From positions 74,040-98,039 of the forward strand of contig NZ_NOXS01000033.1 of the NCBI RefSeq assembly GCF_002251735.1: 24,000 bases of DNA. The letters run 5' to 3'. Positions 704-6,534 of the stretch are shown piece after piece. The position numbers and the translations under genes were made by a program. The notes beneath the pieces are model-generated. The model saw nothing but the letters and a program-made list of their open reading frames with translations. It was not told the origin of the DNA and did no database searches. This stretch comes from Elstera cyanobacteriorum. GTDB taxonomy: Bacteria > Pseudomonadota > Alphaproteobacteria > Elsterales > Elsteraceae. The first letter of the stretch is position 1. Every line of letters starts with the position of its first letter.

Positions 704-2047
704 TTAGGCGGCGCCCGCTTCGATCAGATCGAGCGGGTGCAGCACTTCCAGCAACAATTGCCCGCGCCCGCCCTGGGTCAGCCGAATGCCATTATCGCGC
801 TCCTCCAGCCGCCGTTTCAGCAAAATGAGGCGGGTGGCGAGATTATCGGAGAGGTGCGGCAGGCCAAGCTGTGGATCGAGCCGCAATTCCCGACTGGAAA
901 AGCGCGTGCGGCCATTGGCGGCGAATTCGCGCAGCAGCTTCCATAAGATCGCCCCGGCAACCCCTTTGATCAGATAATCATCGTTCAAAAACACCGTCGC
1001 TGTGCCCGAGTAATAGCGCACCCGCAAGGCCGATCCGCTGACAGGGCAGTCGCAGGGCGGGGTTTCCTCCGGAAGGTCCGCGTCGAACTCCGAACAGTCG
1101 CCGTCTTGGAACTGCATCAGCAGCGCACCGAAACTCAGCCCGATGACCGATAGCGCGTCTTCAATCTCATACGTGAAGGCGTGATTGCGCGGGCTTTCTA
1201 CAAACAGAACGCCCTTTAGCGTGCCGCCAATTGCAATCGGAACGGCGAGCTGGCTTTGTGGGTCGATCAGGCCCGGTAAGGGGATTTCGGGGGCAAGGTC
1301 ATAGGCATCGCCCGCCGTGCGGCGGATGGCGCGGGTATAGGCATTTTCGTGCAGCATATGATTGATGCGGATCGGGGCGCTAACCTCGGCGCAAACCCCG
1401 ATGACGCCATCGCCCAGCGCTACCTCCGATCCGACCCCGGAGGTTGCATAGCCATGACTGGCGAGGGTATAGAGCCGCCCACTGCCGCGATCCAGCGCGA
1501 GCACCATACCATGCTCGATTCCCAATTCCCGCGCTAAGGTGGGGAATAAGGCAGAAATCAGGGCGTCCCCGCTGCGGCAGCGGCTCAGGGTGTCCTGAAC
1601 CCGCCGCAAAGCAGGCATTAAGCTGGGCTGCGCCGGTAACGGTCGGGCGGCGCTATTGACCTTTTCGATAGCAATGACGCGGTAAATATCGGCCCCGCGC
1701 AGTTGGAACACCTCCGCCATTCCGTGATGGGAGGCGATTCCGGCCAGCTTGGCGCGCATCCGCTCGAACAAAGGGCCGTGGGTTTCGGTGCGCAGATATT
1801 GCACACTAATTCGATATTTCTCCGAACTGCCCGGATGCAGCACCAGCACCTGGGCATAGGGGTTCTCGAGAATATTCTGCCGAGTTTTATTGAAGAACTG
1901 AAAGCTGAGGGCGAGGTGCGACTCGTCGAGATACAGAATGTCCGAAAGGTAGGAGACATTCACCTCCCCCGAGGCCGAGGTGGTGGCGATGGCGGACGGT
2001 AGAATCCCGTCCAGCGCGTCGCGAAAGGCGCTGAGGTGTAAGCTCAT
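704..2047 (-). CDS. Putative one-component sensor regulator: PNPOx-like split barrel + GAF + C-terminal OmpR/PhoB-like winged-helix region
   Basis: 447-aa ORF whose start overlaps the upstream gene stop (ATGA, 2044-2047).
- aa 1-135 look like a PNPOx-like FMN-binding split barrel (LPSAIATTSASGEVNVSYLS..LALSFQFFNKTRQNILENPYAQVLVL..YRISVQY).
- aa ~145-312 look GAF-like (GMVLALDRGSGRLYTLASHGY..GVIGVCAEVSAPIRINH..LAVPIAIGGTLKGVLFVES).
- An acidic Cys-containing linker follows (DGDCSEFDADLPEETPPCDCP).
- aa ~339-435 fit the Trans_reg_C pattern by eye (AILWKLLREFAANGRTRFSSRELRL..NLATRLILLKRRLEE..IRLTQGGRGQLLL).
Domains were assigned by eye only. Confidence 0.65.
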   Translation of the reverse strand: MSLHLSAFRDALDGILPSAIATTSASGEVNVSYLSDILYLDESHLALSFQFFNKTRQNILENPYAQVLVLHPGSSEKYRISVQYLRTETHGPLFERMRAKLAGIASHHGMAEVFQLRGADIYRVIAIEKVNSAARPLPAQPSLMPALRRVQDTLSRCRSGDALISALFPTLARELGIEHGMVLALDRGSGRLYTLASHGYATSGVGSEVALGDGVIGVCAEVSAPIRINHMLHENAYTRAIRRTAGDAYDLAPEIPLPGLIDPQSQLAVPIAIGGTLKGVLFVESPRNHAFTYEIEDALSVIGLSFGALLMQFQDGDCSEFDADLPEETPPCDCPVSGSALRVRYYSGTATVFLNDDYLIKGVAGAILWKLLREFAANGRTRFSSRELRLDPQLGLPHLSDNLATRLILLKRRLEERDNGIRLTQGGRGQLLLEVLHPLDLIEAGAA

Positions 2048-2541: not shown

Positions 2542-3213
2542 CTAGGCTGCTATGTTTTCCCATAGTCTTTTCATCTCGAACTCTGTCAAGCGGGCCGTCA
2601 ATAGGTCGGTCACGGCGGCGACCACCGGCGGCGGTGCAGCGGCCCGCAGCCCGGCGAATTTCTCTGCGCGTTGGGCGGCGGTCAGGTTTGGTAGCATCCA
2701 TTGCAGCACCTGCATCGCTTCCTGCGGGCTTTGGCTGGCGACGATCTGATGTTCGATGGCGGCGATTTCTGCATCGCTTAAATGCGCCCACAGGATCTGC
2801 ATATGGCGCGTTTCCTCGTCGTGCATATGCTCGAAATCGATGGCGAGGAACTGGGCAAATTGAAGATAAAGCGCATAGCCCAGCCCTTCCCGCGCGTCCG
2901 GGCGGGCGAGGCTGAGCGCTTCAGCCGCGGCCTCAAGCTGGCGCAGCGCTTCCGCATGGCGGTCGTGCTCGGCGACGGCGGCGGCCTCGCTGCCCGGCAC
3001 AAGGCGCGCCAGGACCGGATGGATGAAGCGATCTTCGTGCGCAATATGCAGCCAATGGACCGCCAAATGGTCGCGCAGGTCGGTCAAGGTTTTACGGGTG
3101 TTATCCTCGTGCTGCCAATCGGCGCGACCGAGTTTGACCAGAATATCCGTAGACCAAGCCCGTAAAGCCTTGTGAATCGGACCGTATAAATCATAGCGCT
3201 GCGGTGTAGACAT
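2542..3213 (-). CDS. Hemerythrin-like (HHE cation-binding) domain protein with a ~70-aa C-terminal extension
   Basis: His/Glu ligand motifs are spaced as in a hemerythrin four-helix bundle: PIHKALR, WLHIAHEDRFIHP, AEHDRH, FEHMHDEE. RBS GGGGGAAGG lies upstream of ATG 3213. This is the first gene of the three-gene operon. Confidence 0.8.
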   Translation of the reverse strand: MSTPQRYDLYGPIHKALRAWSTDILVKLGRADWQHEDNTRKTLTDLRDHLAVHWLHIAHEDRFIHPVLARLVPGSEAAAVAEHDRHAEALRQLEAAAEALSLARPDAREGLGYALYLQFAQFLAIDFEHMHDEETRHMQILWAHLSDAEIAAIEHQIVASQSPQEAMQVLQWMLPNLTAAQRAEKFAGLRAAAPPPVVAAVTDLLTARLTEFEMKRLWENIAA

Positions 3214-3289
3214 TCGACCTTCCCCCGATAAGGTTAAAAACGAGGGAGGCGTTATACAGATTTTATCGAATCACTATTTTATAATAATT

Positions 3290-3318
3290 TGCTAAGGGAA
3301 TGCTAAATATATGCTAAG
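3290..3318 (-). promoter_or_regulatory. Three phased 7-bp direct repeats TGCTAA(G/A) (7-bp repeat + 4-bp spacer, 11-bp period); candidate transcription-factor binding array
   Basis: TGCTAAG at 3290-3296, TGCTAAA at 3301-3307 and TGCTAAG at 3312-3318, with spacers ggaa and tata. The array lies 77-105 bp upstream of the hemerythrin start codon inside an AT-rich island (3214-3375). That island also contains several -10-like hexamers on the minus strand (TAAAAT twice, TATAAC). Confidence 0.45.
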
Positions 3319-3365
3319 AGACATAAAATAGTGCGCTATATGGACTAAGTATTTCCTAGTCTAAT

Positions 3366-3413
3366 TCTAAAAACAAGACGGGCTTCCTGACGCCCCTGTC
3401 AGAAAGCCCGTCT
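3366..3413 (-). terminator. Rho-independent terminator of the MCP gene
   Basis: The minus strand reads AGACGGGCTTTCTGAC-agggg-c-GTCAGGAAGCCCGTCT (arms at 3376-3391 and 3398-3413, one mismatch) followed by TGTTTTTAG. It sits 26 nt after the MCP stop (3439). Confidence 0.75.
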
Positions 3414-3438
3414 GGGGGATTGGTTTATATCTTGGCCG

Positions 3439-5556
3439 CTAGGCTGTGCCGGTGCGAATTGCCCCCAGGAAGCCGTTAACCTCCCGGTCAAGGTCGCCCG
3501 CTTCGCCCGCCAGCAGCTCCGCCGCGTGCAGCACGCCCTTCGCCGCTTCGCCGGTGGAGGTGGTGGCCCCGCGCACCCGTTCGATGATATGGGCGACGCC
3601 CTGGGTTCCTTGGGCGGCTTGATCGGCACTGCGGGCGATTTCGCCCGTGGCGGCACCCTGTTCTTCCACGGCAGCGGCGATGGTGGCGGCGATGCCGCTG
3701 ATATCGCCGATGATCGTATCGATCTGCGTGATCGCGCCGATGGCGGCCCGGGCGCCCTGGGTGATCGAGCCGATTTGCGAGCCGATTTCTTCTGTCGCTT
3801 TTGCCGTCTGCGCCGCCAAATTCTTCACCTCACCCGCGACCACGGCAAAGCCGCGCCCGGCTTCCCCGGCCCGCGCCGCCTCGATAGTGGCGTTGAGGGC
3901 CAGAAGATTGGTCTGCGACGCGATCCCATCGATCAGGCGCGCAACCTCGCCGATGCGTTCCACCGCTTCAGCCAGCCCGCGCACCGTATCGCCCGCCCGC
4001 CGCGCTTCCGCCACGGCCTGATCGGCGATCGTGTTGGAATGCACAACCTGGCGGGAAATTTCGCTGATCGAAACAGTCAATTGCGCCGATGCCGCTGCCA
4101 CGGCATCAACATTGCCGATGGCCTGCGCGGCCGCTGCCGCAACCTCCGAGGTCTGTGCCGTCGCGCCATCGGCCAGGGTCGCCATCGAGCCGGAGGCATT
4201 GCGCATTTCATCCGCCGCCCGCCGGACGGTAGTTACGATGCGCGCCACGCTTTGTTCGAACTGGCTGGCCATTTCATTGAGGGATTGGCGCCGTTCCTCT
4301 GCCGAACGCTGACGCTCGGCCTCGGCTTCAGCCCGTGTGGTTTCAACTTCCATCGCCGTCTGGCGGAAGACATCGAGTGCCCGCGCCATCGTGCCGATTT
4401 CATCGTCCCCAGAAACGCGCAAGGTTTCATTCAGACGCCCCTGGCGCACGGCTTCCATGCCATCTGACAGCAGGGTCAGACGGCGGGCGATGGTGCGATG
4501 GCCGATCCCCCAGCCGACCGCGAGCGCGATCAACAGGCTGGCCCCCGTCAGGGCCATCTGCATGCCCCCGGCCTGTTCGACCAGTTCCTGCGTGCGAACC
4601 CCCTCTGCATGGGCTTCAGCCTGAACGCTTTGGGCCATCTCGTCGATCTGGGCCGACAGCATCTGCGCCTGGGCGCTGATTTTCTTCAGGGTTTGCAGAA
4701 CATTGGTTTGCGCGGCGATCCGCCGCTCGGCAATGACGAAAACGCCGCTTCCCGTATCGGTCGCCAGTCCTAGCAAGCGTTGCACCGGCCCGACCAGATC
4801 AACGTCCTGCGAATCTTTCGACAGGGTGACGAGGCGGGTTTCGAGATGGCGCAGGATCGTTTGGGTCTGCGTCTTGCTGCGCGTAAGCTGGTCGTTGCTG
4901 GTCGCCTGCGCCGCCTGCCGGGCCAGCAGGGACGCGCGTTCGACATCGAGCAGCACGGCGGAGGCTTCTTCGTAGACTGGGAAATGCAGTTCCGCCATCG
5001 CCTGGAGCATTTCCAGGCCCTTGTCGTAATTATTCGACAGTTCCAACGGCACTTCGGTCAGGGTCAGGGAAAGGCTGAAGCGCGCGCGTTCGGCCAGTGG
5101 CGCTACCCGGTCGTTCAAAATGCGCGAGGTGACGGAGATATTTGCCAGTCGCGCCCGTAAATCTTCTTCGGTATTCAGATAGGCTTCGCGCGCTTTATGA
5201 ACCTGGGTTACCTGTTCATTGAACGCGGTGACCATTTCACTCAGCTTTTCATTGTTCTTAAGCTGGCGGGTTAAGGTCCATAGCTTTTCGATGCGATTAT
5301 CAAGCGACAGCTTGCTCGACTCGAGGTTCGCGAGGTCCGGCGCATCCCCTAGCGTTGGCGCCAGCGCGGCAATGGCATTGGCTTCGGCCTTAAGGTCGCC
5401 CGCAACGGCGACCGCCGGTAGTTTTTCGGTCTGAACGACGGCAAAGGCCGCGCCCATCCGATCATATCCCCACAGGGCGGCCCCGCCGCCAACGGCAGCA
5501 AGGGATGCCAAACCCGCCAAAGCCACGAACAGCTTTGTCTTGATCGTTAGCCGCAT
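3439..5556 (-). CDS. Methyl-accepting chemotaxis protein (TM1, ~300-aa helical periplasmic sensor, TM2, HAMP, MCP signalling domain)
   Basis: Carries the highly conserved signalling hairpin [46 protein letters not shown]-like segment follows TM2 ([26 protein letters not shown]). N-terminal TM helix [35 protein letters not shown] lies upstream of the ATG. Confidence 0.95.
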
Positions 5557-5646: not shown

Positions 5647-6534
5647 TTATCCGCCGAAAAGAGTCGATTTAACCCCGTGAATTGACGCAAACGTAAGATT
5701 ATTTTGTTGCTTAACTCCGGTAAGTGCCCAAAGTTGCCCGCCTTTTCCGGCTCCATCTTGCGCCGAGGTGATAAATAAAACGTCAAGATTGTTTCCCCCA
5801 AAACAACAAGAGGTCGGGCGATTGACCGGTAAGGCGATCACCCGCTCGCGGCTACCGTCCGGCCGGTAGCGGGTGATCCGCGCGCCGTCCCAATGGCAGG
5901 ACCAGATATGATCATCAGCATCGAGGCACAGCCCATCCGGGAACCCTTCGTCCGGCGCCAATTGGGCAAAAACGCGCTTTTCCCCCGCCGTTCCGGTTTC
6001 GGGGTCGTAGGGGGCGGTATAGATGCACCGATTGGCGCTATCGGTCAGATAGAGGGTGCGCCCGTCGCCCGACCAGCCGATCCCATTGGTCACGGTGAAA
6101 TTCACCGGATAGGGCCTTACCTCCGGCCTGCTGCCCGTCAAGCAGTAGAAATGCCCGGTCGGGGCGTTTTCGGCATCGTCCATGCTGCCGATCCAGAGGC
6201 GCCCCGCCGCATCGACCTTACCGTCGTTCAGCCGGTTGCCCGGCATCTCCGGCTCCAGCACGGCGAAGGGCGTTAGCGTTCCCGTCTCCGGCACGAACCG
6301 GTAGACGCCCGATTTCAGCCCGACCAGCCAATCGCCCCGCTTGGTCGGCACCGCCGCGCCAACCGGTTCCGGCAGAGGGAAGCGGGTATGCGCCCCGTCC
6401 TTTCGGCCACCGTTGAGCCGGTGTAGGGCGGGGTTCTTGATATCCACCCACCAGATCGCCCCGTCATGCCAAACCGGGCCTTCGCCCAAGCGGCAGGAAA
6501 AATCGGTCAGTTGCGTCAAAACCGGTTCGGACAT
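5647..6534 (-). CDS. SMP-30/gluconolactonase/LRE-family lactonase (probable sugar-acid lactonase)
   Basis: Motifs CRLGEGPVWHDG..WWVDI, NRLNDGKVDAAGRLWIGSM, TNGIGWSGDGRTLYLTDS, PDGLCLDADDHIW and NRPTSCCFGG match six-bladed propeller lactonases of the regucalcin family. It is the last gene of the sugar-acid operon. Confidence 0.85.
   Translation of the reverse strand: MSEPVLTQLTDFSCRLGEGPVWHDGAIWWVDIKNPALHRLNGGRKDGAHTRFPLPEPVGAAVPTKRGDWLVGLKSGVYRFVPETGTLTPFAVLEPEMPGNRLNDGKVDAAGRLWIGSMDDAENAPTGHFYCLTGSRPEVRPYPVNFTVTNGIGWSGDGRTLYLTDSANRCIYTAPYDPETGTAGEKRVFAQLAPDEGFPDGLCLDADDHIWSCHWDGARITRYRPDGSRERVIALPVNRPTSCCFGGNNLDVLFITSAQDGAGKGGQLWALTGVKQQNNLTFASIHGVKSTLFGG

Follow-up and report, generated by a model that had tools for sequence, protein, structure and literature searches.

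The DNA studied here is a 24-kb stretch from Elstera cyanobacteriorum (contig NZ_NOXS01000033.1, positions 74,040 to 98,039; referred to as the window), and the element in question is a repeat array upstream of a three-gene operon for a hemerythrin-like protein, a 161-amino acid (aa) protein and a 447-aa candidate regulator. An initial annotation had described three TGCTAA(G/A) heptamers with an exact 11-base pair (bp) period upstream of this operon. Our work confirms this repeat from the sequence and identifies the heptamers as units 1 to 3 of a four-unit tandem operator that runs from 3318 to 3275 on the minus strand with the same 11-bp period (Table 1). We consider it quite likely that a one-component activator, the operon's own 447-aa product, binds this array and replaces the -35 element of the promoter; here, we infer both the identity of the binding protein and activation rather than repression. 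The array gives a widespread regulator family a predicted DNA site and target genes.

On the plus strand, the repeat consists of TGCTAAG (3290-3296), ggaa, TGCTAAA (3301-3307), tata and TGCTAAG (3312-3318), and it reads CTTAGCA-tata-TTTAGCA-ttcc-CTTAGCA on the minus strand, i. e. in the direction of transcription. Only one further TGCTAAR is present in the window. The initial annotation had suggested to shuffle the intergenic interval 3214-3438. This was done 5000 times with preservation of the dinucleotides, and a repeat was defined as any 7-mer present in three copies that vary in no more than one column: With a period of 11, such repeats appeared in 1/5000 shuffles of the whole interval and in 2/5000 shuffles of the AT-rich core alone; with any period from 8 to 22, the values were 14/5000 and 28/5000, respectively. 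The repeat is thus non-random, but since there are thousands of intergenic regions per genome, the shuffle result alone is suggestive rather than decisive. A scan of 3150-3480 against Rfam returned no RNA family match.

Further evidence for the array comes from distant relatives. One genome per species was scanned for the regulator family, resulting in 80 loci, and gene neighbourhoods were counted in 91 sequences (90 loci and the window). The gene for the 161-aa protein is located directly upstream of the regulator gene in nearly all of the 90 loci as judged by tblastn, and a hemerythrin-like gene is found near the regulator in 58 of the 91 sequences. In the loci of Beta- and Gammaproteobacteria (Beta/Gamma loci), this gene is usually convergent and just downstream of the regulator gene, and must therefore have its own promoter. 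Nearly all of these hemerythrin-like promoters contain four units at an exact 11-bp period, with the array consensus nTTAaGaAaTt cTTAGGatTtg CTtAggcAatt TTTAGgAaCGc and the unit consensus yTTArGaA. Unit 3 has the lowest information content (7.6 bits vs 9.3-11.3 bits for the other units), and it is also the weakest unit in the Elstera clade. When the spacing of TTA[AG] pairs was counted in 47 non-redundant upstream regions of hemerythrin-like genes, the distances 11, 22 and 33 were represented 52, 42 and 28 times, respectively, as compared to 0-4 times for the other distances up to 45 and to 0.2 in shuffled controls. The 81 regions upstream of the 161-aa/regulator operon in other taxa, which serve as a control within the same loci, exhibit no periodicity.

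A 46-bp weight matrix was trained exclusively on 38 Beta/Gamma arrays and applied to both strands of the window. There is a single positive match, 3318..3273, with 22.2 bits (next best, -3.8 bits), and none of 5000 shuffles of the intergenic region reached this score (maximum, 13.3 bits). As this match covers the heptamers, they represent units 1 to 3 of the array. It is conceivable that the repeat is due to chance, or that it reflects a sequence-independent property of an AT-rich promoter such as curvature or an UP element: The G+C content is 39-45% in the repeat region vs about 62% in the flanks, and short repeats are commoner in AT-rich DNA. However, the rarity of a period-11 repeat among the shuffles, the occurrence of TTAG cores at an 11-bp period in G+C-rich intergenic regions of distant taxa, and the fact that an independently trained matrix matches exactly the heptamer site effectively exclude this explanation. 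The initial annotation had also mentioned a degenerate fourth copy, GACTAAG, that is out of phase. This sequence is indeed out of phase, 31 bp from unit 1, but it is located at 3343-3349 rather than at 3353-3359, where the sequence is TTCCTAG. Since its stated position was off by 10 bp and relatives do not conserve it (CTTCACT in locus L002, CTTGATC in L003), it was rejected as a member of the array.

The contigs that carry homologues of the hemerythrin-like protein were used as close relatives, and their upstream regions were aligned. The order hemerythrin-like gene, 161-aa gene and regulator gene is kept in L003-L007. The alignment reveals a footprint in which the flanks diverge, whereas units 1, 2 and 4, the spacer block GTGATTCGATAAAATCTG, the hexamer TATAAC and, of unit 3, the TTA are kept. 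Unit 1 is present as yTTAGCA or TTAACA in L002, L003, L005, and L006, and unit 2 as TTTAGCA or TTTAGCG in every close relative. For unit 3, only TTA is conserved (CTTACCC, TTTATTG, TTTATCC, ATTATGA), and unit 4, ATTATAA, is invariant in L002, L003, L005, and L006. The conservation of the heptamers in the equivalent intergenic regions, by which the initial annotation wanted to see its proposal judged, thus holds for units 1 and 2 but in unit 3 is limited to TTA. In L007, which encodes a hemerythrin-like protein with 56% identity, the intervening sequence is different, yet there are four in-phase units, ACTAGCA, TTTATGA, CTTAATC, and AATAAGA, the latter at the place equivalent to unit 4. In L009, the regulator pair is divergent from the hemerythrin-like gene, and the intergenic region between them contains half-sites at 0, 11, 31 and 42.

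The spacer that separates unit 4 from the -10 hexamer deserves a separate mention. GTGATTCGATAAAATCTG is nearly identical in the close relatives, with one G/T change in L002/L003 and one C/A change in L005, and the 3' 15 bases (ATTCGATAAAATCTG) in L006 are identical to those of the window. Its conservation exceeds that of unit 3, and it is an imperfect inverted repeat, ATAGTGATT-N6-AATCTGTAT. The block has no counterpart in the Beta/Gamma loci, where the spacer is variable and G+C-rich. It may be the site for a second, clade-specific factor. Readings as a Fur box or an FNR box, compared by eye only, were dropped since the match is poor.

The predicted -10 hexamer TATAAC at offset 62 from the array start, which would place the transcription start near 3244, does not vary among the close relatives, and its place at this offset is taken by TATGAT in L007. 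The hexamer 17 bp upstream of TATAAC, AAATAG, is without -35 character, no match to a -35 hexamer was found 16-18 bp upstream of TATAAC, and a sigma-70 consensus scan of 3100-3500 did not detect any promoter, which is consistent with an activator-dependent promoter. Similarly, 37 of the 38 aligned Beta/Gamma arrays have a TAnnnT hexamer at offset 61 from the array start (TAGACT in 19, TACAGT in 9), and the position 17 bp upstream of it is occupied by gAaCGc, without a match to TTGACA. The fixed distance between the array and the -10 hexamer, the lack of a -35 hexamer and the predicted position of the proximal unit at -40..-30 are features typical of activators that take over the role of the -35 hexamer. 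The previous idea that the promoter-proximal repeat abuts the -35 position can be maintained in modified form: The array is predicted to reach this position, but via the in-phase unit 4 rather than the third heptamer.

The same protein and the same sites might also serve repression. In this case, a -35 hexamer TTAGCA in unit 2 (3306..3301) and a -10 hexamer TATAAA in unit 4 (3283..3278) would form the promoter with a 17-bp spacer, RNA polymerase would be obstructed by the bound protein, and the conserved stretch that extends down to TATAAC would serve as the 5' leader. This promoter agrees with the consensus at 9 of 12 positions; the sigma-70 scan missed it on account of the final A of TATAAA. 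It is kept in L002, L003, L005 (as TTAGCG) and L006, and the high conservation of the block downstream would fit an operator or a leader. However, L007 has TTATGA and ATAAGA instead of TTAGCA-17-TATAAA and nevertheless keeps TATGAT at offset 62, and the Beta/Gamma arrays lack a -10-like hexamer in unit 4 but have one at the fixed offset 61. A fixed geometry without a -35 hexamer is typical of activators, and we therefore regard repression as unlikely.

Which protein binds the array? It is the regulator gene that the array tracks rather than a particular target, which can be a hemerythrin-like protein, an E1 dehydrogenase or a cytochrome c. With a threshold of 12 bits and a search range of 4 kb around the regulator gene, an array is present in 73 of the 80 genome loci (Beta- and Gammaproteobacteria, Acidobacteria), including 36 of 43 outside the training set. 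In loci without a hemerythrin-like gene (L015, L050, L051, L054, L066, L068, L074, L077, L083, and others), an inverted array at about 5360-5480 directly follows the stop codon of the regulator gene, and then come 37 nucleotides (nt), a hexamer of the TAGACT or TACAGT type, and a gene on the plus strand; in L066 and L064, the gap is 26-27 nt instead, and the matrix match is shifted by one unit. The gene after the inverted array codes for the alpha subunit of a thiamine pyrophosphate (TPP)-dependent E1 dehydrogenase in nine of ten tested cases and for a cytochrome c in the tenth; in the Acidobacteria it is a cytochrome c gene. The inverted arrays are a second target class with a second promoter geometry. 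There thus seem to be two geometries, one in which a direct array replaces the -35 hexamer, as in the window, and one in which the edge of an inverted array is located 37 bp upstream of a TAGACT -10 hexamer. L048 (Rhodocyclales) contains two arrays: The one at 6196 (minus strand) lies upstream of the hemerythrin-like gene, whereas the one at 1385 (minus strand) precedes the E1 dehydrogenase gene at 1476-2423 on the plus strand, indicating that one genome can hold both target classes.

Some further observations concern the surroundings of the arrays. The -10 region TTCCTAGACT (L013-L090, array offsets 57-67) is unusually invariant for sigma-70 across Beta- and Gammaproteobacteria, and when read as the reverse complement, AGTCTAGGAA, it is similar to one unit (CTAGGAA). 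The region might act as an additional, inverted half-site that overlies the -10 hexamer, or it might reflect a particular sigma factor requirement. A CRP/FNR-type palindrome, TGTGACGCAGTTCACA, closely precedes unit 1 in L020, L022, and L031 (Ramlibacter), at about 25 nt from the array, and similar palindromes are present in L023, L024, and L088; this hints at co-regulation by a factor that responds to oxygen, nitric oxide (NO) or cyclic AMP. In the window, the plus-strand sequence TTTCCTAGTCT at 3351-3362 matches the family motif TTCCTAGACT and contains the -10-like sequence TTCCTAGTCT at 3353-3362. A gap of 38 nt separates it from the distal array edge, with the array on the opposite strand; this is the geometry of the inverted-array promoters. 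At the equivalent place, L002 and L003 have TATTCT, L006 has TATTTT, and L005 has nothing. The array may also drive a divergent short or antisense plus-strand RNA that starts near 3369 and runs through the terminator hairpin of the neighbouring chemoreceptor gene.

The idea that the last gene of the operon codes for a protein with an OmpR/PhoB-type winged helix holds at the level of the fold, but this domain is invisible to Pfam, NCBIfam and hhalign. The regulator matches GAF_2 (9e-8) and PNPOx_N (7e-5) in Pfam, leaving about 110 C-terminal residues outside the assigned domains, and it is 99% identical to an Elstera cyanobacteriorum 'GAF domain-containing protein'. More than 7800 homologues (clusters at 90% identity) have a coverage of 98-100% and an identity of 45-99%, and the precomputed domains of 120 homologues correspond to the PNPOx_N and GAF set of the window protein. 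Residues 336-447 are conserved family-wide, with 25 invariant alignment columns. An AlphaFold2 model of the last 112 residues, calculated from an input of 30 sequences, reached a predicted local distance difference test score (pLDDT) of 89 and a predicted template modelling score (pTM) of 0.84. It contains strands at 6-11, 16-19 and 22-25, a helix at 27-43, a strand at 47-49, helices at 50-55 and 67-82, and strands at 86-90, 95-100 and 104-109; this order, bbb-a1-b-a2-a3-bb(b), is the topology of OmpR/PhoB effector domains. In a Foldseek search against the PDB, the best matches were BaeR, SaeR (two entries), AdeR, and PrrA, followed at lower ranks by ToxR, ArlR, and the Deinococcus response regulator 3q9v, and the top six, with E-values of 0.02-0.12, are all OmpR-family domains. 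The Foldseek probabilities are 0.84-1.0 with E-values of only 0.02-0.3 and identities to the model of 14-21%, and the template modelling score (TM-score) normalised to the target, i. e. to isolated DNA-binding domains, is 0.54-0.68.

At the sequence level, the domain escaped detection. Pfam gave no match for the C-terminal 137 aa even at E<=10, nor for ten other family members, and NCBIfam had no match for the C-terminal domain either. A profile of 30 C-termini found only chance matches (trypsin inhibitor, chitinase) among the PDB sequences, and hhalign against the DNA-binding domain of PhoB (sequence verified against PDB 1qqi and 1gxp) aligned the equivalent helix with a probability of 0.08. 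In a profile search of 1.84 billion representatives, the best 150 matches all belonged to the same regulator family, and thus provided no bridge to Trans_reg_C. The modelled fold thus supports a C-terminal winged helix, whereas membership in Trans_reg_C is not demonstrated at the sequence level. The predicted helix 3 (DNLEARLxLLxRRL) and the predicted wing (GRGRFRL) hardly vary within the family, which fits the conserved core of the DNA units. In the regulators of the Elstera clade (P0016-P0019), the predicted helix 3 contains NLATRL rather than the NLEARL of the family, and the predicted wing GGRGQLLL rather than TGRGRFRL. The operators of this clade are AT-rich; their units are of the TTAGCA type, and unit 4 is degenerate. 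The clade-specific residues might parallel the AT-rich TTAGCA-type units, as a correlation within a single clade.

The array might also be bound by a different factor, e. g. a canonical OmpR-family response regulator encoded elsewhere, in which case the 447-aa protein would act in signalling or as an enzyme and would not bind DNA. Such a scenario could explain why no sequence method recognises a DNA-binding domain in this protein, and there are sources that annotate family members as 'adenylate cyclase'. One source labels many of them 'adenylate cyclase' or 'methionine-R-sulfoxide reductase with GAF domain'; Pfam has no match to a cyclase domain in family members, and these labels are therefore probably wrong. 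Moreover, the array remains beside the regulator family in Alpha-, Beta-, and Gammaproteobacteria as well as Acidobacteria even where the target is a different gene, the modelled C-terminal fold resembles OmpR/PhoB, and there is only one OmpR-type response regulator in the 90 loci. We consider a different factor very improbable. The regulator itself was rejected as a two-component response regulator: No Pfam match to a phospho-receiver domain (Response_reg) was found in it, and it contains PNPOx_N and GAF domains instead.

Three lines of evidence, i. e. the matrix match in the window, the co-occurrence in 73 of 80 loci and the modelled fold, support the initial annotation in its central point, that sites spaced by a helical turn serve an OmpR/PhoB-type winged helix encoded by the last gene of the operon. 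We suggest the following mechanism: The PNPOx-like and GAF domains of the 447-aa regulator would sense a signal, plausibly the redox state, oxygen, NO, or a haem or flavin ligand, as it is tempting to speculate from the domain set and the targets. Several regulator molecules, probably two dimers, would then cover the region from about -74 to -31, arranged head to tail along a single face of the DNA. With the promoter-proximal unit 4 in the position of the missing -35 hexamer, RNA polymerase would be recruited by the bound regulator to the -10 hexamer TATAAC (3256..3251), in the manner of PhoB and SARP activators. In the Elstera lineage, the three genes are fused into one operon, and the regulator, being co-transcribed with its target, would also activate its own gene. 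The autoregulation that had been proposed for this operon would be specific to the Elstera lineage rather than general in the family, since the regulator's own upstream regions in other taxa are mostly devoid of the array.

Several observations weigh against this activator model. Unit 4 of the window is degenerate (ATTATAA), and the window array scores 22 bits with the matrix vs 35-53 bits for typical arrays. Units 2 and 4 also form the plausible sigma-70 promoter TTAGCA-17 bp-TATAAA, which is conserved in the five closest relatives. In seven of the 80 loci, the fetched sequence contains no array. The core of the units, yTTArG, is almost a palindrome, and some arrays of the family are inverted relative to the promoter, so that the rules of orientation are not simple. 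Finally, the binding of the regulator to the array and the transcription start are predictions made from sequence.

Beyond the window, the evidence leans towards soluble one-component transcription factors that form an unrecognised family of more than 7800 clusters at 90% identity, combine PNPOx-like and GAF domains with a cryptic winged helix, and use a four-unit 11-bp operator in two array geometries; their regulon would comprise hemerythrin-like proteins and/or TPP-dependent E1 dehydrogenases with c-type cytochromes in Proteobacteria and Acidobacteria. We found no description of the regulator family or of the array motif in the literature. The family would have been overlooked because its OmpR/PhoB-type winged helix escapes all sequence models.

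Table 1. Features of the operon and of its upstream region (window coordinates).
Feature	Position	Strand	Basis or remark
Unit 1, CTTAGCAtata	3308..3318	-	heptamer 3318..3312; predicted at about -74..-64; first unit of the best matrix match
Unit 2, TTTAGCAttcc	3297..3307	-	heptamer 3307..3301; predicted at about -63..-53
Unit 3, CTTAGCAaatt	3286..3296	-	heptamer 3296..3290; predicted at about -52..-42; weakest unit family-wide
Unit 4, ATTATAAaata	3275..3285	-	heptamer 3285..3279; in phase, degenerate; predicted at about -41..-31, the place of a -35 hexamer
Spacer block between unit 4 and -10 hexamer	3257..3274	-	conserved in the clade
Predicted -10 hexamer TATAAC	3251..3256	-	offset 62 from array start
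Gene 1, hemerythrin-like protein, 223 aa	2542..3213	-	open reading frame; PF01814 in homologues
Gene 2, 161 aa	2044..2529	-	open reading frame; directly upstream of regulator gene
Gene 3, candidate regulator, 447 aa	704..2047	-	PNPOx-like N-terminal domain, GAF, conserved C-terminal domain
Predicted OmpR/PhoB-type winged-helix domain, residues 336-447	707..1042	-	AlphaFold2 model and Foldseek
Chemoreceptor gene, upstream	3439..5556	-	MCPsignal and HAMP domains
Intrinsic terminator of chemoreceptor gene	3376..3413	-	terminator scan: 16-pair stem, then TGTTTTTAGA

The operon extends on the minus strand from 3213 down to 704, and it needs its own promoter since a strong terminator closes the upstream chemoreceptor gene. 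Inside this terminator, at 3388-3403, there is an inner hairpin, CTGAC(A/G)-N4-CGTCAG, that is kept in L002, L003, and L005 even though the outer stem differs and the upstream gene in L005 codes for a flavin adenine dinucleotide (FAD) oxidoreductase instead. The hairpin may be part of the regulatory region in addition to the terminator of the neighbouring gene. The 223-aa hemerythrin-like protein of the window matches PF01814 only weakly (E 0.52), NCBIfam gave nothing useful for it, and it has few close homologues, with 14 matches. The 161-aa protein has no Pfam or NCBIfam family match, and BLASTP did not detect any similarity to the N-terminal domain of the regulator. Its gene overlaps with the regulator gene in the ATGA at 2044-2047, which contains the stop codon of the former and the start codon of the latter and suggests translational coupling of the two genes.

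If these ideas are correct, thousands of entries described as 'GAF domain-containing protein' or mislabelled as 'adenylate cyclase' would become transcription factors with a predicted operator, promoter architecture and targets, and it would become apparent that a common DNA-binding fold can escape the current profile libraries. A hemerythrin-like di-iron protein and a module of TPP-dependent dehydrogenase and cytochrome c would be linked to a PNPOx-like/GAF sensor, which points to a response to oxygen, NO, redox state or haem/flavin. Moreover, more than 70 natural arrays with invariant spacing and in two orientations provide a comparative data set for the mechanism of OmpR-type activators.

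The array invites comparison with the pho box of Escherichia coli, in which 7-bp direct repeats (CTGTCAT) and 4-bp spacers result in an 11-bp period and a 22-bp box is located about 10 bp upstream of the -10 hexamer. PhoB binds head to tail with an OmpR/PhoB-type winged helix to sites that replace the missing -35 element, and it activates transcription. The array shares with the pho box the 7-bp direct repeats, the 4-bp spacers, and the lack of a -35 hexamer at its promoter. However, its unit is yTTAGsA rather than CTGTCAT, there are four units rather than two per box, and the end of the unit 4 heptamer is about 21 bp away from the -10 hexamer as compared to about 10 bp. Unlike PhoB, the regulator has PNPOx-like and GAF domains and no phospho-receiver domain, and unlike the Pho regulon, the operon contains no phosphate genes, the targets being hemerythrin-like proteins, E1 dehydrogenase, and cytochrome c. 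The original term 'Pho-box-like' is thus appropriate for the geometry of 7+4 bp, but not for the sequence, the position or the regulon.

The Streptomyces antibiotic regulatory proteins (SARPs) have an N-terminal OmpR-type DNA-binding domain beside a bacterial transcriptional activation domain (BTAD), and no receiver domain. Their direct repeats are spaced by 11 or 22 bp, with the 3' repeat 8 bp from the -10 hexamer, and in the afs box of Streptomyces AfsR the upstream repeat spans -40 to -30 and overlaps the -35 element (PMC10936776). Like SARPs and AfsR, the regulator studied here lacks a receiver domain, its repeats have an 11-bp period, and unit 4 is predicted to be located where the upstream repeat of the afs box sits. 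Unlike in SARPs, its winged helix is C-terminal after PNPOx_N and GAF, Pfam found no BTAD domain in it, the end of the unit 4 heptamer is separated from the -10 hexamer by 21 bp rather than 8 bp, and the taxa and target genes differ.

ToxR and CadC are membrane-anchored proteins with an N-terminal OmpR-type DNA-binding domain and a periplasmic sensor, and they are not controlled by phosphorylation. The predicted regulator resembles them in having an OmpR-type winged helix without phosphorylation control, and ToxR (8b4d, 7nmb) is among the Foldseek matches; unlike these two proteins, it is apparently soluble, with no match to a membrane domain in Pfam, and its sensor domains are N-terminal. BaeR, SaeR, AdeR, PrrA, and ArlR, of which AdeR and SaeR bind direct repeats, are the best structural matches to the modelled C-terminal domain, but they possess receiver domains and clear Trans_reg_C signatures. 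Tandem sites about one helical turn apart, a trait of the OmpR family, are present in the window and in 47 distant loci, with binding being predicted. Taken together, the modelled fold and the array suggest that the 447-aa protein is a tandem-repeat activator of the OmpR/PhoB type whose sensor architecture is new and whose DNA-binding domain is cryptic. The array would work like a pho box or a SARP box, but it is neither of them.

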